Part shown: positions 1-62,765 of the stretch, in pieces | Layout: each line of letters begins with the position of its first letter | Position numbering within the stretch: position 1 is the first letter of the stretch | From: a virus | Taxonomy: Duplodnaviria; Caudoviricetes | Reading direction: 5' to 3' (one strand) | DNA: 62,765 nt | IMG/VR virus record: IMGVR_UViG_3300030098_005334 | Span: 1 to 62,765 of that record | Notes under the pieces: generated by a model | Seen by the model: only the letters and a program-made list of their open reading frames with translations | Databases searched by the model: none | What the model was told of the DNA's origin: nothing | Position numbers and translations under genes: made by a program

Positions 1-578
1 TTATGTTCCGCTTGGAAGACAAACATAAAGTTGAACGTGCCTGAAATGCCGAGAGGCATACCGTCACTGAATGATCCTTGTCCGAAAGGATAGACGAGGA
101 ATACAGCAAACGCGGCAGATACTGGTGCAGAGTAAGCAACACAGATCCAAGGGCGCATGCCTAATCTATAACTAAGTTCCCATTGGCGTCCCATGTAAGC
201 TGAGATACCGATAAGGAAGTGGAAGATAACAAGCTGATATGGTCCACCATTGTAGAGCCATTCGTCGATGGTTGCTGCTTCCCAGATTGGGTAGAAGTGG
301 AGTCCAATTGCGTTGGAGCTGGGAACAACGGCTCCTGAGATGATGTTGTTTCCATACATGAATGAACCAGCTACTGGCTCACGGATACCGTCGATATCAA
401 CGGGTGGAGCTGCAATAAATGCAACGATGAAACAAGTTGTAGCTGCAAGAAGGCAAGGGATCATTAAGATTCCGAACCAACCTACATAGATGCGATTGTT
501 GGTAGATGTTACCCACTCGCAAAACTCGTCCCAACCTTGCAAAGGACTGCGGCTCCTCACTAAAGATGAGGTAGTCAT
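1..578 (-). CDS. psbA: Photosystem II D1 protein, 5' part, truncated at window edge
   Basis: Manual translation from ATG at 578: [44 protein letters not shown]...[19 protein letters not shown], the canonical D1 sequence; absent from the ORF track because it has no stop in the window. Confidence 0.98.
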
Positions 579-12684: not shown

Positions 12685-12727
12685 AAAATACTGATATCAA
12701 ATATAAAGAATTTATTACAGTTTACCG

Positions 12728-12745
12728 AATGTAACGAAGTGTAAC
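12728..12745 (-). promoter_or_regulatory. HLR1 (RpaB) element upstream of the hli cluster
   Basis: Minus strand GTTACACT-tc-GTTACATT matches the (G/T)TTACA(T/A)(T/A) direct repeat with a 2-nt spacer (one mismatch). Confidence 0.7.
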
Positions 12746-12784
12746 AAACGTAAAATAGGTTATAACAAAAAAATTTAGGTAATT

Positions 12785-12937
12785 ATGACTAACAAGTCAC
12801 AAGCCAAAGCAATTGCACAAGAGCAAAACTTAACTGAAGAAGCTGAGTTAGCTAATGGTCGTTTTGCAATGATCGGAATTATTGCTGCTTTAGGTGCATA
12901 TGTAACAACAGGCAACATAATCCCCGGTATTTTTTAA
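12785..12937 (+). CDS. hli: High-light inducible protein 1, 50 aa
   Basis: AELANGRFAMIG...TTGNIIPGIF. Confidence 0.92.
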   Translation: MTNKSQAKAIAQEQNLTEEAELANGRFAMIGIIAALGAYVTTGNIIPGIF

Positions 12938-13137
12938 TGACAAGCTCAAGCCACGTCATTACTGAATACGGTAAGCAAAACATCTTTGGAAAAGAAACAA
13001 AACCTGTATTAGTTGAAAACTATACTAATTATCCAGAAGAAGCTGAAAAAGCTAACGGACGCTGGGCAATGATCGGTTTTGTTGCTTTATTAGGTGCGTA
13101 TCTAACTACAGGTCAAGTTATCCCTGGTATCTTCTAA
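12937..13137 (+). CDS. hli: High-light inducible protein 2
   Basis: AEKANGRWAMIG...TTGQVIPGIF; TAATG coupling to hli 1. Confidence 0.95.
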   Translation: MTSSSHVITEYGKQNIFGKETKPVLVENYTNYPEEAEKANGRWAMIGFVALLGAYLTTGQVIPGIF

Positions 13138-13222
13138 TGTTTTTAAAAACATTGATATCCCTTTATTTAACAAACCTCAAGAGAAACGGTCTCTTACATC
13201 TTCTACTCCACAATCTAAGAAA

Positions 13223-13330
13223 ATGACTCCTGAAGCAGAAAAATTTAATGGCTGGATGGCAATGCTTGGCTTTGTCGCAGCTCTTGGTGCATACGCCACA
13301 ACTGGTCAAATTATCCCTGGTATTTTCTAA
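13223..13330 (+). CDS. hli: High-light inducible protein 3, 35 aa
   Basis: MTPEAEKFNGWMAMLGFVAALGAYATTGQIIPGIF. Confidence 0.92.
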   Translation: MTPEAEKFNGWMAMLGFVAALGAYATTGQIIPGIF

Positions 13331-13434
13331 TGTCTAAAAACTTCTTAATCTGGCAAAAAGCCAACGGACGTTTTGCAATGGTAGCTTTCTGGGCTATCAT
13401 GGGAGCATATACATACTCTAAATACGTCGTTTAG
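13330..13434 (+). CDS. hli: Divergent high-light inducible protein 4, 34 aa
   Basis: MSKNFLIWQKANGRFAMVAFWAIMGAY...; TAATG coupling. Confidence 0.75.
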   Translation: MSKNFLIWQKANGRFAMVAFWAIMGAYTYSKYVV

Positions 13435-13628
13435 TGATTCTCGGAATTATTAATTTTGTTGAGGCATGGAATGCTATTAGCTGGGCTGATGCCATTCCAT
13501 TTTGCCTCTTTCTTTATGGAGCTTATTGGTTAAAAGTTAGGATCGATACTAACGCTGGTCTAGGTAAAAAAAAGAAAAATGAATTAAAAAGAATTATTGT
13601 TGAAGCAATAAAAGAAGCTAATAACTAA
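13434..13628 (+). CDS. Small membrane protein
   Basis: Hydrophobic N-terminal half, coupled to the hli cluster. Confidence 0.6.
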   Translation: MILGIINFVEAWNAISWADAIPFCLFLYGAYWLKVRIDTNAGLGKKKKNELKRIIVEAIKEANN

Positions 13629-13807
13629 TCTTCTAAAATTTTTTCAAAAATATCAGATACTTCTATTAATGAATCTATGCGTAATAACATCTCGGCAATA
13701 TGCTTACTGACGTAAGGTTTTTCTGCTCTAGCTGAGAAAGCTAAGGCACTTCTTAAATCTGCTTGAGAATCACGTAAAGCTTCCTCTACTTGTTTACTTA
13801 ATGTCAT
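13625..13807 (-). CDS. Hypothetical cyanophage protein
   Basis: LRSALAFSARAEKPYVSKHIAEML. Confidence 0.65.
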   Translation of the reverse strand: MTLSKQVEEALRDSQADLRSALAFSARAEKPYVSKHIAEMLLRIDSLIEVSDIFEKILED

Positions 13808-14025
13808 TTCACATACTTCTTGATGACTTCAATTCTATGATCCCAACCAGCAATTTTATCTATTTCAGATTGAATAGCCTCAGTAACATTTGAATGATCT
13901 CCTATCCCCACTGGGTTATTTAAAAATACGTCTACATTTGCTAGATGTACTTCTATTTCACCCTTTGCATGGGCGATAATTGCATTCTTCAATTTATCTC
14001 GTAGATTAATCATCCTTAAAGACAA
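13804..14025 (-). CDS. Hypothetical phage protein
   Basis: HLANVDVFLNNPVGIGDHS motif common in marine phages. Confidence 0.7.
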   Translation of the reverse strand: MSLRMINLRDKLKNAIIAHAKGEIEVHLANVDVFLNNPVGIGDHSNVTEAIQSEIDKIAGWDHRIEVIKKYVK

Positions 14026-14045
14026 TCTTTATCTACAGGATAGGC

Positions 14046-14315
14046 TTATTTTAATTTTTTACCATTATGTCCATGAGCTATGCCTAATTCATGCATTTTT
14101 GCATGTTCATCTATTGCATCTTTTAAATCTTCTTTACCAGCACCAAATGTTAAGTAGATTCCATAACCTACTAAAAACAATAATAAACCTAATATGATGG
14201 CTATTAACTGTCCTTGAGGTGGGAGTCCTTCATAAGTACCATGAGGTATTAAAGGTTTTTCCCAAGTCTCAGGATGAAAATATAAAGAAGGAAAAGAAAT
14301 AAATAAATCCATCAT
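14046..14315 (-). CDS. psbN: PsbN-like protein
   Basis: TM helix followed by GYGIYLTFG...LKDAIDEH, matching the PsbN GYxxYxxFG...LxDPFxEH pattern. Confidence 0.6.
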   Translation of the reverse strand: MMDLFISFPSLYFHPETWEKPLIPHGTYEGLPPQGQLIAIILGLLLFLVGYGIYLTFGAGKEDLKDAIDEHAKMHELGIAHGHNGKKLK

Positions 14316-21104: not shown

Positions 21105-21314
21105 CTACCTAATAGGACCTTGTCTAATAACTATGTATGGTTTCTGATCAGAACCTGCTTCAGAAATATAATCTTGATATTCTCCAGTGGTTGGTATTCC
21201 TACACCGCTTTGCATATATGTCGAACTACCAGTAGATTTACTTCTCCACTTTTCTGCTCTATCTTTTGCCATTCCGTAATTTGCCATTACAGCTGGAAAA
21301 TCAGTGTCTCCCAT
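21105..21314 (-). CDS. Hypothetical protein
   Basis: 69-aa ORF coupled to neighbour. Confidence 0.55.
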   Translation of the reverse strand: MGDTDFPAVMANYGMAKDRAEKWRSKSTGSSTYMQSGVGIPTTGEYQDYISEAGSDQKPYIVIRQGPIR

Positions 21315-21547
21315 TACCTACCCATGCGACCTAGAAAGTCATCAACTCTTGAAGTAATACTTGGCTCTTGTGAAGCTGCGTTCATCGGATTAGTTTTCTC
21401 AGCCGCCTTCATATTTGCTTCTGCATAAGGAGCACTTACTGCTTGACCTTGTGTTGCGTAACCACCAGGAAGTTTTGATTGCCTACGTGGATCACCAAGA
21501 TCCGCTGACATTCCTAAACCAGCTGGATCAAAACCTGCTCCGCCCAT
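21314..21547 (-). CDS. Hypothetical protein
   Basis: 77-aa ORF. Confidence 0.55.
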   Translation of the reverse strand: MGGAGFDPAGLGMSADLGDPRRQSKLPGGYATQGQAVSAPYAEANMKAAEKTNPMNAASQEPSITSRVDDFLGRMGR

Positions 21548-21594: not shown

Positions 21595-22194
21595 CTACTC
21601 CAAATCCATGGGCATTGTGATCCTTACCCTTTCCCCTGCCATTCTGTCTTTCTTTAATTTACCAGATTTACGATCAGCTTGAAATTGTTGATTTGCTTTG
21701 TATGTCTCAAACAATTCTCTAGGATCAAAAGCACCTGATTGCATTGCTGGGCTGTTTCTTGTCCTTTCAATAAACTGTTCATATGTATCTGCTCCTTTTA
21801 TCTTGCTTCTACCACCAGATGTTCCATCCTCATATTGATTATCAATTGTGTAGTCATAAAAAGGATTAGCTACCTTAATTGCTTCAGTAATACCGAACTC
21901 AGGGAAAAAACCACTTTGATCTTGTCTTGCATCTCTAGCTTCCTGACTTCCTAAACCAAATAAAAAAGGAACCCCAGGAGGTGCGACTAACTTACCTGCA
22001 AACATACCAAAATCTCTAGAAGGTCTCAATGCACGTAAACCTTCACCTATACCTAATTCTGGAAATAGTCCACTTTGATCTTTTCTTGCTTCTTGAGCTT
22101 CGGGAGTAAACATTGATACGCCTACTCTAGTTGCAGGAACAAGACCTAATAAAGCTTTTCCAAAGTCTTTAAGGAAACGATTTTCCTTTTCCAT
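21595..22194 (-). CDS. Hypothetical protein with internal repeat (likely start MEKEN at 22194)
   Basis: Repeat EAQEARKDQSGLFPELGI / EARDARQDQSGFFPEFGI. Confidence 0.6.
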   Translation of the reverse strand: MEKENRFLKDFGKALLGLVPATRVGVSMFTPEAQEARKDQSGLFPELGIGEGLRALRPSRDFGMFAGKLVAPPGVPFLFGLGSQEARDARQDQSGFFPEFGITEAIKVANPFYDYTIDNQYEDGTSGGRSKIKGADTYEQFIERTRNSPAMQSGAFDPRELFETYKANQQFQADRKSGKLKKDRMAGERVRITMPMDLE

Positions 22195-22246
22195 ATTTAT
22201 AAGACACTTTTTATAATAATAACATCGCGAAATAGACGATATTGAC

Positions 22247-22393
22247 ATGAAATCAGCTATCACTACTACAAAATCCGACGGCAGAACAATTTATCTTGTT
22301 TGTTCTCCTAGCGGTGATATGTGTCATTACACACCCTGCTACTACGAAGCCATTCATTTTGCAACTATATATAACGAATATTGTCTATCTTGA
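22247..22393 (+). CDS. Small Cys-containing protein, 48 aa
   Basis: Manual translation MKSAITTTKSDGRTIYLVCSPSGDMCHYTPCYYEAIHFA...; TATAAT about 30 nt upstream. Confidence 0.5.
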   Translation: MKSAITTTKSDGRTIYLVCSPSGDMCHYTPCYYEAIHFATIYNEYCLS

Positions 22394-22401
22394 AACATTT
22401 A

Positions 22402-22676
22402 TTAGGGGGAAAGATTTTAAAAGGTAAAAAATTACACTAAATCGATTGCGGTGACTAGATTCTTGATTGAACAGCCAAATCTGTGGTTTTTTTTGCTATT
22501 TTTATCGGAGTAGTGTATGGAAGGGGTAGGGTTGTGAGTGTAATGTTACTATCAGATACCTACCCCCATCCGATATAGAAGTAAATATAAATGGTAAAAA
22601 AATAAGAAATTTGGTTGTTCAACGATTGCTATTGCGACAGAAGGGGTTTACCCTAGTTCGACATTGTTTCCCCTAA
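22402..22676 (+). ncRNA. Long imperfect hairpin, putative structured RNA or ssDNA element
   Basis: Nested arms: TTAGGGGGAAA/TTTCCCCTAA, TTGCGGTGAC/GCTATTGCGA, TTGAACAGCCAAAT/ATTTGGTTGTTCAA, TTTTTTTGCTATTT/AAATGGTAAAAAAA, TATCGGA/TCCGATA, GGGGTAGG/CCTACCCC; mismatches are mostly G-U on the + strand. Confidence 0.65.
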
Positions 22677-22686
22677 CAGATCATTC

Positions 22687-23784
22687 ATGGATGAATTTAT
22701 ATACGCAGGTCTAACTCCTTACGATCACTTGGTTTTCGCAAAAACTATACAAATAGGGCTGGAAAATTTTGGGGCAAATCGTTGTTGGGATGCGGCAGAA
22801 TATGCTAATTCAATATTTGAAGGGTTTAATACTTCTAAAAAAACTCACCTAATCTACAAAAATGTAGATGCTCGACCTCTGATACTGGCTATAAGTGGTA
22901 GAGAAAAGGAAGATGATGAATCAATTGTTGTAAGAAAAGCTTGTTGTTCCTCTCCACACTGTCTGAATCCTTGCCACTATTACTGGGGAGGACGTCAGGA
23001 TGTTGCATTTGAGAAAGCACAGAAGAATAAAAAGTTAAATATTGATGTTATCAAGCGACTTAGAGTGGCTTATGAAAGCGGCTTAAGCTGTAGAAGAATA
23101 TCAAGAATATATAAATTACCTTATCAAACTGTGCGTCGGATATGTAGCGGAGAAACATATGAGTCTATTAATAAATTTTCGTCTACTATTGATGAAAAGG
23201 AGGTATTACATCAATCCTCACTTGTTTGTAAAAAAGTAATCATGGCAAATCCTGAAGAAGCAAAAAAATTACAGCTTAAATATCATGAAATGAATGAAAT
23301 GGAATGTCCTTGGCACAGGAAGGGTGAGTCAAAACATAAGGGTAATTTTGGATTAATGGGTGAATGTTTGGACTGTATGGAAAAAATAAAAGAAGGATAT
23401 TGTAGTGTTGATGTAAGAAATTTTGATCTTAGGTGGTACTGGCAAGTAAAAAGATTTTGGGAACAAGTTGATGTTAAAGATAAAGATAGTTGCTGGCCTT
23501 GGTTAGGTGCCATAAAAGAAAAGAAAAAAGAATCAATCGCATGTTTCCCTAGTCCCTGCCACTCTAGTAAAACACAATCAGCTCACAGGGTGGCATTTTG
23601 GCTCAGTCGTGGCTATACAGGTAAATACCGCGTCTTTACCGGCAAGAATTGCAAACCTTATTGTTGCAACCCATCTCATCTAACGATTAGAGAATTGTCT
23701 GAAGACGCCCAAAACCCTGAATTAAAAGAGGTAAAACTGCACCATGACAACATCTTCGAGCATTTCAAGAACAGAAAGGCATAA
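22687..23784 (+). CDS. Tandem His-Me (HNH-like) zinc-finger protein with central HTH; catalytic His apparently absent
   Basis: CW...CCSSPHCLNPCH and CWPWLG...AHRVAFW...CKPYCCNPSHL; HTH GLSCRRISRIYKLPYQTVRRICSGETY. Confidence 0.75.
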   Translation: MDEFIYAGLTPYDHLVFAKTIQIGLENFGANRCWDAAEYANSIFEGFNTSKKTHLIYKNVDARPLILAISGREKEDDESIVVRKACCSSPHCLNPCHYYWGGRQDVAFEKAQKNKKLNIDVIKRLRVAYESGLSCRRISRIYKLPYQTVRRICSGETYESINKFSSTIDEKEVLHQSSLVCKKVIMANPEEAKKLQLKYHEMNEMECPWHRKGESKHKGNFGLMGECLDCMEKIKEGYCSVDVRNFDLRWYWQVKRFWEQVDVKDKDSCWPWLGAIKEKKKESIACFPSPCHSSKTQSAHRVAFWLSRGYTGKYRVFTGKNCKPYCCNPSHLTIRELSEDAQNPELKEVKLHHDNIFEHFKNRKA

Positions 23785-24121
23785 AGTTACTTCAAAAAGT
23801 AGCCAGTTGATGCCCAGTAATTTTCATTTAGAAGAAAAACAATATGCACCTATGGTTGTTATAAATGGTGAAACAACTTTTGGTGCTTGGTGTGACACAA
23901 AAGATGAAGCAAAAGCTAGACTATGTCATTTAGAAATAGCGTTAGATTATTTTTCATACCCCACAAAAGAATCAGAGTGCAAAGGAAGAGAAGGAGTAAG
24001 AATTCAAGCTGAACGGGCTGCTAATATGGAAAGATGGTACCAAGAATCAGGAAGAACCAATTCCATCTTTACGGGCTTAGCACAAGAACATGTCAAGATT
24101 TCTAACGACAATTCCGAGTAA
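23744..24121 (+). CDS. Hypothetical protein
   Basis: 125-aa ORF in operon; start uncertain. Confidence 0.55.
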   Translation: MTTSSSISRTERHKVTSKSSQLMPSNFHLEEKQYAPMVVINGETTFGAWCDTKDEAKARLCHLEIALDYFSYPTKESECKGREGVRIQAERAANMERWYQESGRTNSIFTGLAQEHVKISNDNSE

Positions 24122-24767
24122 CACAGGATTTTTTAATCTAGGAACAGTTGAATCATACCCAACAGGAGGTGGAGGTCCGACTGCATATGGACCTACCTCT
24201 TATTTCGGCTCAGATCCCTTACCAGCACAAAGTGGGGACAACATCTATAATCCGATAGATTTGGGGGACTTTTCACCTATTTTTAGAAGTGTTCCCATCA
24301 AAAATAGTCATGGTGGATTATCAAGAAAACAAACTACTTTTTATAGAATTGTTTTAAGACAACCAAGATCTGTTCAATTCACTCAAAATCTAAGTCAATT
24401 TTCATATGAAAAAGAAACTAATAGAAATACATTAATTGCTTTTTATGAAATATTTGAGGGTAATAGAAGAGAAGAGATGCCTATCAATGATCTTGGTTAT
24501 GTAGCTAAAGAAGCAGCAATAGATTACTTAGTTGATGATACAGGCTTAAAACTAGATGATTATCCAACAACTTTACTAAACCCTGGTGAATATTTATTTC
24601 TAATAACAAATGATATTAGATATCAAGAAACAGAATACTCCATAACAGTCAACGTTAATAAAGTTGATTTTGAATTTATTAATCAGGCTGCCATTGAAAA
24701 TATTGACTTTGGACAAATTGCAAATGCTGCAGGAAGTGACATCAATTTTGGCAATATAGTAATTTGA
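24090..24767 (+). CDS. Hypothetical protein, beta-sandwich-like
   Basis: 225-aa ORF; LNPGEYLFLIT...YSITV pattern. Confidence 0.6.
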   Translation: MSRFLTTIPSNTGFFNLGTVESYPTGGGGPTAYGPTSYFGSDPLPAQSGDNIYNPIDLGDFSPIFRSVPIKNSHGGLSRKQTTFYRIVLRQPRSVQFTQNLSQFSYEKETNRNTLIAFYEIFEGNRREEMPINDLGYVAKEAAIDYLVDDTGLKLDDYPTTLLNPGEYLFLITNDIRYQETEYSITVNVNKVDFEFINQAAIENIDFGQIANAAGSDINFGNIVI

Positions 24768-49890: not shown

Positions 49891-50895
49891 TTACTCCATC
49901 ACAAGGAGCTTTTGACGGAAGATCTCTGGGCTCTGCTGAGCTGCATTTAGATACTTCCAAGCATTCTGAGGATCTCTGTCAGCTAAGTTGCCAAAGCTAT
50001 TCCAGAACTCTTCAGGATTACCTTGCTGAGCTTGAGGCTGTGGAGGTGCAGGCATCTCTGGACGTGTTGGTGCAGGAGCTTGCTGTTGGAATTGCTGACC
50101 TACAAATCTTCCTTGTGGTGCTGGCTCTTCCATTTTGTCCACAGGATGAGGACCTTCTGGACCAAAGAACTCACAAGTGTAATCAGCTAATACGTCTGGA
50201 TTAGTAAGAATTTTTTCATAAGCTTTATGCTCATTAACTAATTCTCGTAGTAAACCAGTTGCTTCTTGTAATTGACTATTAGTATTTACTAATGAATCTT
50301 CAATCTGACAAGCATAGTTATTAAGTAATGCTGGAGCATCTGCACCAAAATGATTAATTACTTCAAGACTTGCTTCGCTTACCCCGTTTTGTCTTAGCTG
50401 ATCCGCTGTCACTTCCGTAGACATTTGGGAAGAGGCGTTGGAGTAACCCTGGCTGTTCCCGCTCGAAGGCATATATGTCTGCGCTGCCGGGTCGCTGTAC
50501 TGGGTTGTCGCTTGGGAACCGTAATTGGCCTGAACGCCTGAGGGGGTCGTTGTCGATTGTTGACCCTGGAACGGGAATTGGACTGGTGAACTCAGCAGGT
50601 TCACTACCTTGTCGAATGCGTCCCTGTATGGATTCTCCGCCTGCTGTGGCTGCGGCGCTTGCGGTGCCTGGTAGCCCGATGGAGTAGGGCTGTATTGGAT
50701 TCCCTGAACCCCCATCTGGGCTGGCGCTTGTGGAGCTGGTGCCGCCATCGGCTGGGCGCCCGCTGTCCACTGTGGTGTTGTTGCCACTGTTGGTGCCTGC
50801 GCTGCCGTTTGTGCTACCGGAGCCCCGGAGCTGATCGGCTGGGTCGGGGATACTTGGGGTGCCGATTGGATCGGCGCTGCGGTATCGGCCTGCAT
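49891..50895 (-). CDS. Putative scaffolding protein, Pro/Gln-rich
   Basis: Between portal and capsid; GAGGT RBS; low-complexity region plus coiled coil. Confidence 0.7.
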   Translation of the reverse strand: MQADTAAPIQSAPQVSPTQPISSGAPVAQTAAQAPTVATTPQWTAGAQPMAAPAPQAPAQMGVQGIQYSPTPSGYQAPQAPQPQQAENPYRDAFDKVVNLLSSPVQFPFQGQQSTTTPSGVQANYGSQATTQYSDPAAQTYMPSSGNSQGYSNASSQMSTEVTADQLRQNGVSEASLEVINHFGADAPALLNNYACQIEDSLVNTNSQLQEATGLLRELVNEHKAYEKILTNPDVLADYTCEFFGPEGPHPVDKMEEPAPQGRFVGQQFQQQAPAPTRPEMPAPPQPQAQQGNPEEFWNSFGNLADRDPQNAWKYLNAAQQSPEIFRQKLLVME

Positions 50896-52636
50896 AGGTT
50901 ACCTCTTTTTGTAAACTTTCGAGTGTACGATATAAAAATGGAGTGAGATTTAATCTCGGATCTGCAGCAATCGGTAAATTCGGCTGCTGCGGATGAGGCG
51001 TTCTCATTTCTTGATTGACTAAGTCAATAAGACCTGAGTAAGCCCTCTGTAGTTCCCCAACAACTCTGAACGGAAATCCTGATAACATACCAGCAATTTC
51101 GTCGTCAGTTTTAGATGGGAATAAATACTTCAGTGCTTCTATGCTATCAACGCCTAATTCTTGTAGGTTTCTTACGAAGATAGATTGATTCAATTTATCT
51201 TGTGCAGTATCCTCATAAACTGGACCCATCCAACGCCATAAAACAGTTCTATCTCCATCTGGAGCTAATCCTAAAACACCGACAGGAACCTCTCCTGATC
51301 TAATAACTTCTTCAATTGTTTGATCTAATTTTTGCTCATACTTTGCTTTTGCCTCTTCATATTTTTTCATCGCTTTATCTTTATCTTCCTCATCAAGAGG
51401 AAATTCTGGATATTTTATACCTGTGGAAAACGCAAGTGATTTTCTAAATATTTGCTCTTCTTGGAAAATTATTAACTCGAAGCATTTACATACTCCATAT
51501 TGATATAACTGAAGACATTTCTTTTTAGCAGTAGCACTAACTCTTCCATAAGCAGATTTTATTTCAGTTGCAGTAACGTTCGTGATACTTAAATCATCAA
51601 TACCACCTAGAGCTAAACGTATCTCACTTCTTAATTGTTCTGAATATCTTGCTTGGTCTGTACTTACAGCATTAGGTGTAATAAAACCAACACGATCAGA
51701 TGGCTCTAAGTTTGCAATAACTCTCGGTACACGCATACCACTACCAGGTTTACCTAAATAACCTGGCTGCTGCCTTGTTATAGGGTCTTGTTTATATGTG
51801 GAGCTGGAGAGTAATGATTCAGAACCAAACCCTGATTGACTCGATATGCTAGGACGTTGTACTGCCCCATCAGAATCATTTTCTACAATATCCTGTTTTG
51901 GTCTAGATGATAAAAGAGTTGGGTTACCGAAGAAAGATAAGTTAGCTCTTATATTTTTAACCATCTCGTCATGAGCGATGATCTGATTAGCTAACATCTC
52001 AAATTCACCTGCTCCATCAGTTCCAAATGCGTCAGGGTTATTAAATACCTCAACACATGGAATGAATTGCATTGTATTTTTCACCACCGTCTTATTTAAC
52101 GTGGCTACTTCCATAACATCCTGATCAAAATTAATTTCTTGTTCAGTATGTGTTTCTTCTATTTCAAGAGGAGTGATCCTCAAACGCATGTATCTCTTAT
52201 CTGTATTTAAGCCTGTACCTCTAATACCTTTGTTGGATTTTACTTTGTAAGGATAAATTAGGATTACCTCTTCAAGTTCACCCTCTGGTGAATAATATGT
52301 TCTATAAGAATCCTTATCGAACCAGTAAATCCTGTAAGTCTTCTTAGTAGGTCTTATGTAGAACAGTCCTTTTCCATAGGCTAAAAATCTATCCCAAATT
52401 GAATCTAATCTTGCATCTAATTTATTGAATTTGATTACCTGTTGTATGAAATCAAATCTTTGTGTTCCAAAATTATCTTGTTGAGGGAAGAACTCCACAC
52501 CTTGGCGTATCCCAAACATTTTCATCTGGGATAAATGAGCATTAACCAGCATGGTGTCAGCTGGTCCTGTCCCATCTCTAGTTATGACCGAATTTAAAAT
52601 TCGATCCAGAACAGTTTTACTATTGCTGTCACTCAT
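50363..52636 (-). CDS. Portal protein with C-terminal extension overlapping the scaffold gene
   Basis: Directly downstream of the terminase; FIPCVEVFN...GAGEF portal-like segment; helical protein of fitting size. Confidence 0.75.
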   Translation of the reverse strand: MSDSNSKTVLDRILNSVITRDGTGPADTMLVNAHLSQMKMFGIRQGVEFFPQQDNFGTQRFDFIQQVIKFNKLDARLDSIWDRFLAYGKGLFYIRPTKKTYRIYWFDKDSYRTYYSPEGELEEVILIYPYKVKSNKGIRGTGLNTDKRYMRLRITPLEIEETHTEQEINFDQDVMEVATLNKTVVKNTMQFIPCVEVFNNPDAFGTDGAGEFEMLANQIIAHDEMVKNIRANLSFFGNPTLLSSRPKQDIVENDSDGAVQRPSISSQSGFGSESLLSSSTYKQDPITRQQPGYLGKPGSGMRVPRVIANLEPSDRVGFITPNAVSTDQARYSEQLRSEIRLALGGIDDLSITNVTATEIKSAYGRVSATAKKKCLQLYQYGVCKCFELIIFQEEQIFRKSLAFSTGIKYPEFPLDEEDKDKAMKKYEEAKAKYEQKLDQTIEEVIRSGEVPVGVLGLAPDGDRTVLWRWMGPVYEDTAQDKLNQSIFVRNLQELGVDSIEALKYLFPSKTDDEIAGMLSGFPFRVVGELQRAYSGLIDLVNQEMRTPHPQQPNLPIAADPRLNLTPFLYRTLESLQKEVTYAGRYRSADPIGTPSIPDPADQLRGSGSTNGSAGTNSGNNTTVDSGRPADGGTSSTSASPDGGSGNPIQPYSIGLPGTASAAATAGGESIQGRIRQGSEPAEFTSPIPVPGSTIDNDPLRRSGQLRFPSDNPVQRPGSADIYAFEREQPGLLQRLFPNVYGSDSGSAKTKRGKRSKS

Positions 52637-60831: not shown

Positions 60832-61017
60832 TTAATTTTAAATTCTCTATATTTACAAGGGTGTTCGTCCCCTAAAACGCCTTAAAAAAGGCCAAAATGG
60901 GGCAAAAAAAAATGGTAGGTATCTGGCGCCGCCTGTCCTCAGTTCTTCGCGGAAACAAAAAAAAGAAATGTGACATATGATACATATTTAGGTCAAATTA
61001 TATACATTTAGCAGCCT

Positions 61018-61090
61018 TTTTCCACAGAAAATGTGGATAAAATGAACCTTTTTTTCACATAGTTTTACACATGTGGATAACTTTTCCACA
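61018..61090. promoter_or_regulatory. Cluster of six DnaA boxes
   Basis: TTTTCCACA 61018, TGTGGATAA 61032, TTTTTCACA 61051, TTTTACACA 61063, TGTGGATAA 61072, TTTTCCACA 61082; all fit TTWTNCACA on one strand or the other. Confidence 0.75.
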
Positions 61091-61643
61091 AGCCTGGAAT
61101 TGTCTACTACTTGTAGTTATATGTATTGAATACGTCTCGACTCAGTTGCTATGACGTTTTAAAACGATTACCTACTAATAGTTGCCGTTAAATTAAGCCG
61201 CTTTGTCCAAATTTTGTGTCCAGTTCTTTTATATATCGCTTAAATCCATTGCTATGACTGACTTATTTTTCTTTGCGTAACTGTGTGTCAGACAGTTATG
61301 CAGTATATTTTCTCCAAATTGTTTCAATTTATGTAAATTAGTTGTATTTTTGCTCAAAATGTGGTTTTTTATATAGCTTTTTCTCCCCTTATTCTTTCCC
61401 ATATCTATATATAAAGAACACTCAAGCAAGGCCAGAAGGCCAAATATTCAGTAAACGTAGTTATAGCAAGCGATGGAGAGGACGTGGAAAACTCCCAGAA
61501 AACCATTTGTGACGTTTTATACATCAATACAACAGTATGTAACAAACTTATTAATTCTCTCACTACTTACATAAGTCCGATGATATATTATTCACATCGG
61601 CAAACAAGCCGCACTTTAAACCTTCTATTAAAGGTCAACAAAC

Positions 61644-61862
61644 ATGAGTAAAAAGATTAAGCACGAGGCCGATTGGGTCAACAAAGCTTTAGACCTGACA
61701 CTTTATCCAGTTAACGAACAGGGTAGACACTGGACTATTTTTAAGGATGAAACAAGAACGTCAAGGGTAGCGAGTATGCTTACAGCATCGGAGGTATTAG
61801 CTACTTTACAAACTATCTATAAGCTACAAAGCTGCGGTCTTATTCAAGGGGTAGAGGTGTAA
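61644..61862 (+). CDS. Early hypothetical protein
   Basis: First ORF after the non-coding region; AAGG RBS. Confidence 0.6.
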   Translation: MSKKIKHEADWVNKALDLTLYPVNEQGRHWTIFKDETRTSRVASMLTASEVLATLQTIYKLQSCGLIQGVEV

Positions 61863-61864
61863 TC

Positions 61865-62204: not shown

Positions 62205-62765
62205 ATGACTAATCTAGCAAGGGACTTGAGCCTATTCCGTAAGGAATACAAGTTCAACAGTTCTAATCTACTAACTCTCACAAATCCTAAGGTCTTAAAG
62301 TCCGAGAGTATCGCACCAACTGCGGTGTTACATATGTTACCAACTAAAGCGGCCTGTCCTGCGGCTGGTACATGTGCACTAGTGTGCTTGAATACTGCGG
62401 GTAACCCTGCCTATTTAAAAGGTAAGCTTGCATGTAGAGCACGTAGGGATAAAGCTTTTAGGGACTCCCCTAACAAGTTTTTAAGACTGCTAACTATCGA
62501 AGTGATGCGATTCTACTCCAAAAATAGAGCCCATGACCTACTAGGGTTACGGCTCAATGGGACTAGTGACTATCATTGGGAGTCTATTGCGGTCACTATT
62601 ACAGAGGATGACAGTAAATTTATCCTCAAAAAATTCAATATCAATGTTAATTCAGGTCGCTATGACTCAATCTTATTAGCTATTACTAACGCCTATGACT
62701 ATCTCAAAGAGTCAAGGGTAGGGGATACGCTTAAGCCCTATGACTACACAAAGAGAATTGATAGG
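62205..62765 (+). CDS. Gp88-like protein, truncated at window edge
   Basis: Manual translation: CPAAGTCALVCLNTAG...LRLNGTSD.HWE...YDYTK. Confidence 0.75.
   Translation, partial: MTNLARDLSLFRKEYKFNSSNLLTLTNPKVLKSESIAPTAVLHMLPTKAACPAAGTCALVCLNTAGNPAYLKGKLACRARRDKAFRDSPNKFLRLLTIEVMRFYSKNRAHDLLGLRLNGTSDYHWESIAVTITEDDSKFILKKFNINVNSGRYDSILLAITNAYDYLKESRVGDTLKPYDYTKRIDR

Follow-up and report, generated by a model that had tools for sequence, protein, structure and literature searches.

Homing endonuclease genes of the T4 type (I-TevI, I-TevII, I-TevIII, segB, and Aeh1 mobE) are described as being controlled by a hairpin combined with an embedded promoter (PMC2988022). I-TevI, an active GIY-YIG enzyme, also binds a single operator that overlaps its own promoter and resembles its homing site (PMC2988022). 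Among His-Me finger proteins, those without the catalytic His can keep DNA binding, as exemplified by the Smad MH1 domain, and PacI carries a Tyr in place of this residue (PMC5714182). In the HEARO/IscB (OMEGA) systems, an HNH-family open reading frame (ORF) is preceded by a structured region of ~300 nt. Frpo single-stranded DNA (ssDNA) promoters and the sso of RCR plasmids are long imperfect hairpins of 150 to 300 nt with -35/-10-like boxes in the stem; they are strand and orientation specific and act on transferred or rolling-circle ssDNA.

The locus analyzed here lies in the window, by which we mean the whole 62,765-nt stretch of DNA under study (Table 1). A palindrome of ~290 nt, with a conserved core of 170 nt, occupies the gap between an upstream gene and the gene encoding P0001, a 365-aa protein. 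As in the T4-type genes described in PMC2988022, a gene of a phage homing endonuclease family has the 3' arm of a hairpin at its translation start and a promoter, here a predicted one, directly upstream, whose transcripts would be unable to form the hairpin. In contrast to the short T4-type stem, however, the palindrome is long, its pairing is strand symmetric without wobble enrichment, and sequestering is weak in silico; P0001 also has no catalytic His, and its gene is syntenic, not mobile. Like I-TevI (PMC2988022), P0001 is a putative DNA-binding protein of the homing endonuclease type encoded beside a promoter with candidate sites, although here a nested palindrome with four or more motif copies takes the place of one operator and binding is a candidate activity. 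P0001 shares with Smad MH1 a lost catalytic His and a retained Zn-binding scaffold (PMC5714182). Smad MH1 and NFI are nonetheless eukaryotic single-module transcription factors, the similarity of P0001 to them is weak, and no membership is claimed. The palindrome resembles Frpo and sso in being a long imperfect hairpin with -35/-10-like boxes in its stem but differs from them in showing no strand preference. Finally, the likeness to HEARO/IscB lies in an HNH-family ORF preceded by a structured region, whereas the window has no Rfam HEARO match, no RuvC, and apparently dead HNH modules, and the system is not transposon-borne. IS200/IS605-type residence was not found, as the gene has the same neighbors in 35 loci and there is one copy per complete genome with a match.

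Table 1. Window coordinates of the palindrome, its predicted parts, and the surrounding genes
Feature	Coordinates	Strand	Description
Divergent 77-aa low-complexity gene	21314..21547	-	24 blastp relatives, up to 92% identity
Sigma-70-like match TTTCCA-18-TATAAT	22188..22217	+	Consensus scan, 10/12 matches; upstream of the small ORF
Small 48-aa Cys/His-containing ORF	22247..22393	+	Ends 8 nt before the palindrome; no family match
Inverted repeat I2 (outer)	22391-22411 / 22667-22687		21 nt, 76%
Outer stem P1, 5' arm TTAGGGGGAAA	22402..22412	+	MFE and centroid partner 22667-22676; within I2
Core hairpin P3-P7	22464..22625	+	CM R1 match; inverted repeats I1, I3, and I4
Inverted repeat I1	22467-22493 / 22596-22622		27 nt, 81%
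Inverted repeat I3/I4 set	22488-22505 / 22585-22602		18 nt, 83%
Inverted repeat I3/I4 set	22523-22543 / 22546-22566		21 nt, 76%
Predicted sigma-70-type promoter	22626..22654	+	In 3' half of palindrome; -35 TTGCTA 22626-22631, 17-nt spacer, -10 TACCCT 22649-22654
Outer stem P1, 3' arm TTTCCCCTAA	22667..22676	+	In predicted short 5' UTR, 10-20 nt before ATG
365-aa gene P0001	22687..23784	+	N-terminal HNH-like module, residues 1-115; HTH, ~110-167
P0001, rest of protein	residues 207-230, ~238-345		Cys/His cluster CPWH..H.GNFGLMGECLDC; C-terminal HNH_3-like module
125-aa gene	23744..24121	+	Overlaps end of P0001 gene; no family match; relatives at same position in 17 loci
225-aa gene	24090..24767	+	Relatives downstream in 35 loci, 56-89% identity; most conserved member of the operon

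Folded as RNA, positions 22394-22690 gave -88.1 kcal/mol, compared with a mean of -63.4 for 200 dinucleotide shuffles, none of which folded as well (z -5.04). In a GC-regressed fold scan, the palindrome ranked first among 1043 windows of 240 nt (z -3.41). Together with the nested inverted repeats, these values bear out the long nested hairpin that an earlier note on this DNA had described upstream of the 365-aa gene; the outer arm also ends where the note had placed the end of the hairpin, ~10 nt before the ATG at 22687. The core consists of a long stem, an A/T-tract segment, a TTTTACT/AAGTAA helix, and an apical GGGGTAGGG...CCTACCCC hairpin. In every case the outer stem extends to the stretch 10 to 20 nt ahead of the start codon; in most loci its 5' partner is near -276. 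This outer pairing (~-276 with ~-10 to -20) was individually significant in 12 of 38 representative loci. A motif search revealed no further copy of P3 or of the apex motif elsewhere in the window. Rfam returned no family at gathering score over the whole window and, at E<=10, six chance-level rows for 22200-22800 (best E 0.11, a miRNA model), with HEARO not among them. No tRNA or tmRNA was found, and a search of GenBank phage DNA with 22000-24200 gave no match.

A covariance model of the core (CM R1) scored 118.4 bits (E 9.4e-21) on the + strand of the window and 67 bits on the - strand. In 72 of 79 related IMG/VR loci it found a + strand match shortly before the homologous gene, such that the hairpin recurs upstream of homologous genes, where the earlier note had proposed looking for it; the palindrome is kept at the same place in these loci even though the proteins are 44 to 57% identical. 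Counted by source, a + strand match lay directly 5' of the gene in 50 of 59 cases, with the remaining nine comprising five that lack upstream sequence, two with partial matches at the locus end, and two GC-rich sources below threshold. Among five complete relatives, three gave one CM R1 match each and two, both GC rich, gave none.

Paired cells reached 92.3%, compared with 89.6% in shuffles (0 of 500 reached the observed value) and 35 to 46% when partners were slid. Cells changed on both sides numbered 36 versus 14.0 in shuffles (again, 0 of 500), but pairs with both-side change numbered 6 versus 5.8, a value of 6 being reached by 297 of 500 shuffles. The A-tract/T-tract helix is swapped in orientation between lineages, A/T tracts occupy mirrored positions of the palindrome, and GC-rich lineages have arms with 82 to 100 Watson-Crick pairs in quite different sequence. 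Near-perfect 100-bp arms are retained in several lineages, the spacer segments are palindromic too, and invariant sequence blocks run within the palindrome alignment. Some lineages (group C) show no overall folding; group C loci have z scores of about 0 to -0.7 yet score 170 to 180 bits with the covariance model. Misalignment of the GC-rich rows limited RNAalifold to 12 pairs when run on the raw MAFFT alignment of 48 sequences. Dyad symmetry, i.e., the potential for intramolecular pairing, is thus conserved, partly by compensatory change, and equally on both strands. Palindromy extends from the arms to the spacer segments, so selection seems to act on folding itself, which duplex binding alone would leave unexplained.

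The earlier note had further held that non-Watson-Crick positions in the hairpin are almost all G-U on the + strand and that this bias reflects selection on a single-stranded + strand structure. Neither point survived a strand-neutral analysis. Fold-back alignment of the window gave 8 G.T, 5 A.C, and 34 other mismatches (1, 0, and 1, respectively, with strict flanking). Across 38 representative loci, isolated mismatches comprised 27 G.T, 21 A.C, and 96 others, and the resulting 48 transition-type versus 96 other mismatches correspond to the 1:2 ratio expected without wobble tolerance, in a test that has low power where helices are near perfect (48 transition-type mismatches in total). The - strand of the window folded to -66.4 kcal/mol (z -4.47, compared with -5.04 for the + strand), and ~14.6 of the 21.7 kcal/mol separating the strands was already present in the shuffles and is therefore attributable to composition. 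Over the 38 loci, the mean z was -4.66 on the + strand and -4.29 on the - strand, with the + strand better in 22. Per-group consensus folds likewise gave 614 pairs, a summed energy of -527, and 41 compensatory columns on the + strand and 645 pairs, -504, and 44 columns on the - strand. In group B and in the lineage to which the window belongs, the + strand folded 16 to 24 kcal/mol better, and close relatives differ in the strand favored (+ in the window and - in locus L004).

Judged by its sequence, P0001 is a relative of phage HNH homing endonucleases in which an HNH-like C-terminal module and a putative N-terminal counterpart, both without the catalytic His, flank an HTH. Residues 251-343 of the C-terminal module matched PHROG 1872 (E 3.7e-9) and PHROG 3593 (E 7.5e-8), tblastn reached HNH endonuclease annotations in 41 phage records (lowest E 3e-6), and the atlas search returned HNH_3 clusters at 0.92. 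A BFVD fold search gave 18 matches at E<=0.001, with the named rows being almost all HNH or homing endonucleases. P0001 did not reach Pfam HNH_3; its sole Pfam row was a weak HTH_SB below the cut-off (E 0.0036), with no RuvC or other IscB domain, and its sole NCBIfam row was a sub-threshold HTH_Cbp1. By VIA-align, residues 110-167 matched the HTHs of transposases, resolvases, and sigma-4 (Z 5.0-5.8), and the HTH was the only part to score in the wide search (Z 5-5.8). Foldseek found no match to the full model in the PDB at E<=0.001, and the family profile reached best E values of 0.58 and 0.88 against PDB sequences. The stand-alone model of the C-terminal module (pLDDT 48.7) was not used. The DNA-binding domain of NFI is akin to MH1, and NFI domains gave weak fold rows with P0001 (Foldseek E 0.35-2.1; VIA Z 4.4). 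Of the tandem architecture proposed in the earlier note, the HNH-like C-terminal module, the HTH, and the replaced His hold up, but the likeness of the N-terminal module is weak, as hhalign of the two modules gave an E of 0.002 and a probability of 13.8% over 74 co-linear columns.

The Zn-binding Cys cluster and the C-x-N-P-x-H motif of HNH_3/His-Me fingers are present in P0001, and C87, C92, N94, P95, and H97 as well as C322, C326, C327, N328, P329, and H331 are invariant in 42 sequences. The catalytic-His position reads RVFT in the C-terminal module and VVRK in the N-terminal module, compared with VVMH and EVDH in two Pfam-verified HNH_3 proteins, and the 42 homologs have no invariant His at the catalytic column. 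P0001 is probably nuclease dead on the basis of these residues. A missing catalytic His is no proof of inactivity, however, because PacI uses a Tyr (PMC5714182) and Y314 is invariant among P0001 homologs.

P0001 has 206 database relatives (protein clusters) and is encoded in at least 124 of 139 candidate IMG/VR stretches; 185,579 species genomes contained no relative, with 66 pattern matches none of which was one. The gene is syntenic and single copy within a lytic-phage backbone. Relatives of the 48-aa ORF, identified by blastp, occupy the corresponding upstream position in 15 of the 35 loci examined (groups A, D, and E) and are absent in groups B and C. In the latter two groups, a homolog of the 77-aa gene lies directly left of the palindrome region, and the palindrome sits between divergent transcription units. 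The 225-aa protein had no Pfam, PHROG, or NCBIfam match, and the atlas search returned unnamed viral clusters and weak PPC rows at 0.85. For replication, the phage carries a Prim-Pol, D5_N, and SF3-helicase replicase as well as a family A polymerase. Its nearest isolate, Synechococcus phage S-EIVl (64.6% large-terminase identity), has no P0001 orthologue, giving a weak partial HNH-like match (E 1.1e-7). Both the palindrome and P0001 belong to the single-copy core of a large lineage of uncultured marine phages.

In 44 of 52 upstream rows, the best promoter-like match fell at a common position within the 3' arm, with the -35 box predicted by consensus match at -50 to -64 and the -10 box at -21 to -34 relative to the ATG. 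At this embedded predicted promoter, GC-richer relatives have TTGACA-17-TAnnnT; the stems of GC-rich relatives include a paired -35 box and spacer, with mismatches concentrated at the -10 box. Transcripts reading into the palindrome could start at the sigma-70-like match that precedes the small ORF; the consensus scan gave two sites in the region versus 3.0 expected, so that this match alone is not significant. Copies of G[GT]TAGG[GT] cluster at the palindrome (5 of 23 genome copies in genome G002, 3 of 25 in genome G003, and 3 of 25 in the window, compared with ~0.2 expected for each of the three). The half-sites containing G(G/T)TAGG(G/T) are ordered + + - -, with the last lying between the -10 box and the ATG. 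When four RNA runs were examined, one marine metatranscriptome contained 0.14 of the words, and the other three gave short unlike pieces. The metatranscriptome contigs (22204-22495 and 22707-23449) had a depth of 2.7 to 5.9, like that of neighboring genes, and DNA carry-over is possible. The former contig runs from the small ORF into the 5' arm; among the RNA pieces listed, none spans 22496-22706, a gap that is uninformative.

The palindrome looks more like a DNA control site than a guide-RNA system. We tentatively favor the explanation that it is a strand-symmetric DNA control palindrome bound by the neighboring P0001. It would be a single-copy quasi-palindromic cis-element whose 3' arm holds the sigma-70-type promoter and short 5' UTR of the P0001 gene, and it would act at the DNA level as a binding and control platform for P0001. 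The protein, as a domesticated HNH homing endonuclease relative with two His-less modules and an HTH, would bind the repeated G(G/T)TAGG(G/T)-containing half-sites and thereby regulate the promoter of its own gene, in the manner of I-TevI and its operator. The linkage of a conserved palindrome to the P0001 gene, at one locus per genome where it was found, is consistent with this explanation, as are the selected pairing (in paired fraction and both-side changed cells), the similar statistics of the two strands, the sequence blocks kept even where folding is weak (group C), the clustered motif, and the predicted promoter inside the 3' arm. So are an HNH-like protein without catalytic His, an HTH of the DNA-binding type, and the precedents of the I-TevI operator (PMC2988022) and Smad MH1 (PMC5714182). 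Weighing against it, the link between protein and site is one of adjacency alone, near-perfect 100-bp arms exceed what an operator needs, and both-side changed pairs are no more frequent than in shuffles. The low power of the wobble test, the better folding of the + strand in the window's lineage and group B, and the PacI-like Tyr argument for P0001 activity count on the same side.

An outer stem near the start codon is predicted by an RNA translation gate and not by a DNA operator. In such a gate of the T4 homing endonuclease type, a possible but doubtful explanation, read-through transcripts would fold so that the outer stem covers the 10 to 20 nt before the AUG. Long transcripts, whether read through the 48-aa ORF or started at a promoter to the left of the palindrome, would be blocked in translation or become an RNase III-type substrate, and transcripts from the embedded promoter, lacking the 5' arm, would be translated. 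The conserved position of the predicted promoter, the reach of the outer stem, the co-oriented upstream ORF kept in 15 loci, and the RNA-library contig entering the 5' arm all agree with a gate. The start region was also less unpaired in the long than in the short RNA in 36 of 38 loci (mean probabilities of 0.42 and 0.65, respectively), although it was still 0.50 unpaired with the 5' half shuffled (the long RNA being less unpaired in 27 of 38 loci), so the specific 5' arm adds little. Moreover, G.U is not enriched over A.C or other mismatches, no consistent + strand advantage exists, the 170-nt core far exceeds the needs of a ribosome-binding-site trap, and the RNA contigs, with neighbor-like depth, may be DNA carry-over. 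The autoregulatory leader suggested in the earlier note is compatible with a conserved single-copy palindrome carrying a predicted promoter, but the RNA depth and lack of wobble enrichment lend it no support. Rather unlikely is a folded-DNA replication element, namely, an origin or a single-strand initiation/ssDNA-promoter site whose hairpin would form when unwound and be recognized by the Prim-Pol/SF3 helicase, by P0001, or by both. Palindromic origins between divergent genes are known from HSV (oriL/oriS) and SV40, and the paired -35 box with a mismatched -10 box in GC-rich relatives is reminiscent of Frpo/sso-type hairpin promoters. The strand-symmetric, long-armed, single-copy palindrome with mirrored A/T tracts, its position, in groups B and C, flanked by divergently transcribed units, and the replicase encoded by the phage fit such an element. 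However, placing an origin at the palindrome barely changed the fit of third-position GC and AT skew, a weak test (residual falling from 884.9 to 883.5 in G002 and from 989.7 to 983.2 in G003), and the best positions lay away from it. A distance of 10 to 20 kb also separates the palindrome from the replication genes, the GC content of the palindrome (0.34-0.35) is no lower than that of the genome, and no observation supports an ssDNA stage. The origin with its binding protein raised in the earlier note is likewise compatible with the conserved single-copy palindrome beside the gene, but no compositional-skew signal was seen for it.

A folded-DNA switch, in which P0001 would be a structure-specific binder of the hairpin or cruciform, appears improbable. 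In the duplex state, rightward transcription of the dead-HNH gene would start at the embedded promoter. Unwinding of the + strand in replication would let the hairpin re-create this promoter, now with its -10 bubble already melted and with the 5' arm serving as template, so that RNA polymerase (or a primer) would be directed to the left, into the structural genes. We consider it very improbable that the palindrome is a neutral leftover of an inverted duplication, with no function of its own, whose palindromic form is maintained through template-switch correction. The mismatch spectrum does look random, and group C lacks overall folding, but the element stays in place in 72 of 79 loci while the proteins diverge, it contains invariant blocks, its paired fraction exceeds both the shuffled and the slid controls, and several lineages keep near-perfect 100-bp arms. 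The HEARO/IscB-like ribonucleoprotein suggested in the earlier note, or another guide-RNA system in which a scaffold RNA with a variable guide is bound by the HNH protein, can hardly be credited at all. Its sole attraction is an HNH-family gene beside a ~290-nt structured upstream region. The lack of any Rfam match or RuvC domain largely refutes HEARO/IscB identity, and the catalytic His and strand asymmetry were negative as well, the G-U argument having failed. A predicted promoter lies between structure and gene, and a syntenic, single-copy gene with no relatives in the species genomes is unlike a transposon-borne system.

The palindrome is not in Rfam, nor is P0001 in Pfam. If the palindrome is merely a large T4-type hairpin gate, it would be of specialist interest. 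The folded-DNA switch, if true, would be a replication-coupled origin or late-promoter device of a kind undescribed for tailed double-stranded DNA phages. If, as we tentatively favor, P0001 binds the palindrome, a phage homing endonuclease would have been domesticated as a site- or structure-specific regulator, in parallel to Smad MH1, acting on a conserved palindrome of unusual length in which the promoter of its own gene lies. Such binding would provide a handle on early/late control or on the start of replication in this phage group.

The stretch between a small + strand ORF and the gene for the 365-aa HNH/HTH protein folds at -88.1 kcal/mol (z -5.04), which none of 200 shuffles matched, and ranks first in folding among 1043 scanned 240-nt windows. 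Given the shuffle z score, the nesting of its inverted repeats, and its top rank in the scan, the long hairpin described in the earlier note is real and not a product of chance. In a complete relative, a stretch in the gap between convergent gene blocks (G002:C1:24661-24960) matches the palindrome in folding (z -3.24) and is possibly a terminator region.

Coordinates and content of the palindrome and associated features (window positions unless a related locus is named)
Feature	Position	Content
Palindrome stretch	22394-22686	Between small + strand ORF (22247-22393) and 365-aa ORF (22687-23784)
Outer stem	22402-22412 with 22667-22676	Surrounds the remainder of the palindrome
5' flank of palindrome		Local hairpins
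Core	22464-22625	Long stem, A/T tracts, TTTTACT/AAGTAA helix, apical GGGGTAGGG...CCTACCCC hairpin with tip of varying length
Sigma-70-like promoter in 3' flank	22626-22654	TTGCTA-17-TACCCT in the window
Extra hairpin module	L013:2613-2655, L023:2556-2706, L036:2549-2697, and similar loci	About -430..-285 from the ATG

The quasi-palindrome is conserved and single-copy, with one locus in each of three complete relatives. The upstream 300 nt could be aligned over 48 distinct loci (39-83% identity to the window) and contain invariant blocks. A covariance model (CM) built on a 168-position core matched the + strand immediately ahead of the gene in 50 of 59 sources and in 72 of the 79 loci of a second set; the misses were loci that lack upstream sequence or are GC-rich. 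Fold-back alignment of L050, one of these GC-rich loci, yields 100 Watson-Crick pairs. Copies of the motif G[GT]TAGG[GT] stand in the order + + - - within the element, where they are 15- to 25-fold enriched over the remaining sequence of three genomes. A promoter-like site is embedded in the palindrome and reads TTGACA-17-TAnnnT in GC-rich relatives and TTGCCA-17-TATGCT or TATACT in groups B and C; the best promoter-like match fell at this position in 44 of 52 rows. Its position places the core upstream of the -35 box and the outer stem's 3' arm within a predicted 15- to 29-nt leader. Related loci of groups B, C, and D carry an extra apex-like upstream hairpin module, smaller than the main palindrome (CTAGGTA..GTGAGTGTA..ACAGTCA..TACCTAAC; CM sub-hits of 23-35 bits), of which the window gave no CM sub-hit.

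The viral contig (62,765 bp in IMG/VR; completeness estimate, 73%) encodes a family A DNA polymerase, a Prim-Pol/D5_N/SF3-helicase replicase, a large terminase, a major head protein, and tail fibres. Its closest isolate is Synechococcus phage S-EIVl (large-terminase identity, 64.6%). Since a 507-aa window protein aligns to the 2541-nt S-EIVl large terminase CDS (L061, KJ410740.1 54080-56620) as two pieces across 2.4 kb, an insertion in that gene, perhaps an intein, is suggested. The 48-aa ORF immediately before the palindrome (22247-22393) is conserved in 15 loci, has a Cys/His pattern (C19, C26, H27, C31, H37, C46), and is flanked by a 12-nt inverted repeat (22232-22243/22377-22388; 92% complementary). 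Elsewhere, a GC island (50640-50900; 50-66% GC versus 37% for the genome) that contains no tandem repeats codes for the G/S/A/P/T-rich low-complexity C-terminal tail of a 757-aa virion protein (PHROG 20475); a 334-aa ORF overlapping it is probably spurious. ORFs of at least 100 aa are absent from two stretches of 1-1.6 kb (12685-14311 and 60832-61864); the latter is a further divergent region and, together with 62443-62719, contains several dispersed TTAGGGG/GGTAGG copies.

At E<=0.001, the search identified 206 relatives of the 365-aa protein (mostly 47-56% identity), every one unnamed or "hypothetical"; the protein did not reach the Pfam threshold, and the species-genome collection held no relatives. 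A relative is encoded in 58 of 59 candidate IMG/VR stretches in the first set and 124 of 139 in the second. The 365-aa gene is syntenic, with a 225-aa gene next downstream in 35 loci, and so behaves as a domesticated core gene rather than a mobile one. In group B (L013, L023-L035, and others), the frame is open for ~150 nt upstream of the ATG, into the palindrome, so database gene calls range from 365 to 427 aa; the true start is likely the conserved ATG 12-18 nt ahead of the tblastn match. In the AlphaFold model (mean pLDDT, 80.9), residues 110-167 form a three-helix HTH resembling those of IstA, Tn3 resolvase, Tc3, and sigma region 4 (Z 5.0-5.8), and the C-terminal module shares homology with phage HNH endonucleases. 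Alignment to two Pfam-verified HNH_3 proteins places T (C module) and K (N module) at the catalytic His position, while the Cys and NPxH scaffold does not vary across 42 homologues. His-Me fingers without this His, such as the Smad MH1 domain, are considered inactive DNA binders (PMC5714182). The tandem, nuclease-dead architecture of the earlier note is partly borne out: the two modules resemble each other only weakly, and the protein is probably, not certainly, nuclease-dead, because PacI uses Tyr in place of the catalytic His (PMC5714182) and Y314 is invariant among the homologues.

Selection on pairing was partly borne out by covariation. When 39 AT-rich cores were aligned with MAFFT, unfitted, 92.3% of cells were paired, compared with 89.6% in shuffles (0/500 as high) and 35-46% with slid partners, and 36 cells had changed on both sides, compared with 14.0 (0/500); pairs with such changes were not in excess (6 versus 5.8), because most pairs are invariant. 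Comparison between lineages provides stronger evidence. In the window and L049, the A-tract/T-tract helix has its T-run 5' and its A-run 3', an arrangement reversed in L013 and L006, and GC-rich L050, L139, L116, and L056 keep 82-100 Watson-Crick pairs with arm sequences far from the AT-rich ones. A-runs occupy both arms in group C and in some loci of group D, which counts against pairing as the sole constraint, and group C folds at shuffle level (z 0.3 to -0.7), although its sequence blocks are kept (170-180 bits, CM).

The G-U bias that had been taken to indicate a + strand structure did not hold up, either in the window, where the - strand z of -4.47 nearly equals that of the + strand, or family-wide. 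Consensus folds of the + and - strands gave 614 versus 645 pairs, summed energies of -527 versus -504, 292 versus 264 G-U cells, and 41 versus 44 compensatory columns; mean z was -4.66 versus -4.29, with + better in 22 of 38 representatives. Strand preference flips among close relatives (window, + by 21.5 kcal/mol; L004, - by 6.8). Strand-neutral fold-back alignment gave 27 G.T, 21 A.C, and 96 other isolated mismatches within solid helices, alongside 2344 Watson-Crick pairs, the 1:2 ratio expected without tolerance for wobble pairs, with power limited where helices are nearly perfect. G.T exceeded A.C in the CM alignment (78 versus 27), yet 50 of the 78 came from two columns. Pairing potential is strand-symmetric, and, within the limited power of the test in near-perfect helices, we read the element as a DNA palindrome and not as a fold under selection on a single RNA strand.

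With a promoter-like site inside the palindrome and an HNH-derived, HTH-bearing protein without catalytic His encoded alongside, our best reading, held tentatively, is a DNA-level control platform: the 365-aa protein would bind the palindrome DNA and autoregulate its own promoter, in the manner of I-TevI at its operator (PMC2988022). An RNA gate of the T4 type would account for the promoter within the structure and for an outer stem that always reaches the start region, but its in-silico support is weak and the wobble signature is absent; we consider it rather unlikely. A close relative is present in one marine metatranscriptome, with contigs that run from the small ORF to within the 5' arm (22204-22495) and across the gene itself (22707-23449), both at neighbour-like depths; this shows presence in an RNA library, not a discrete RNA, a strand, or ends. 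Complementarity of the entire arms, spacers included, would follow from folded DNA acting as an origin or single-stranded DNA promoter, an option we rate slightly lower still; skew analysis gave it no support. A neutral relic is improbable, and a guide RNA-protein complex hardly credible; the element belongs to none of the curated RNA families.

The closest logic to that of the element is the hairpin-and-promoter layout and autorepression of T4 homing endonuclease genes. In contrast to those cases, the element is larger (~290 nt, arms up to ~145 nt) and strand-symmetric, the catalytic His is lost from both modules, and the gene belongs to the core of a lineage that is widespread and uncultured.
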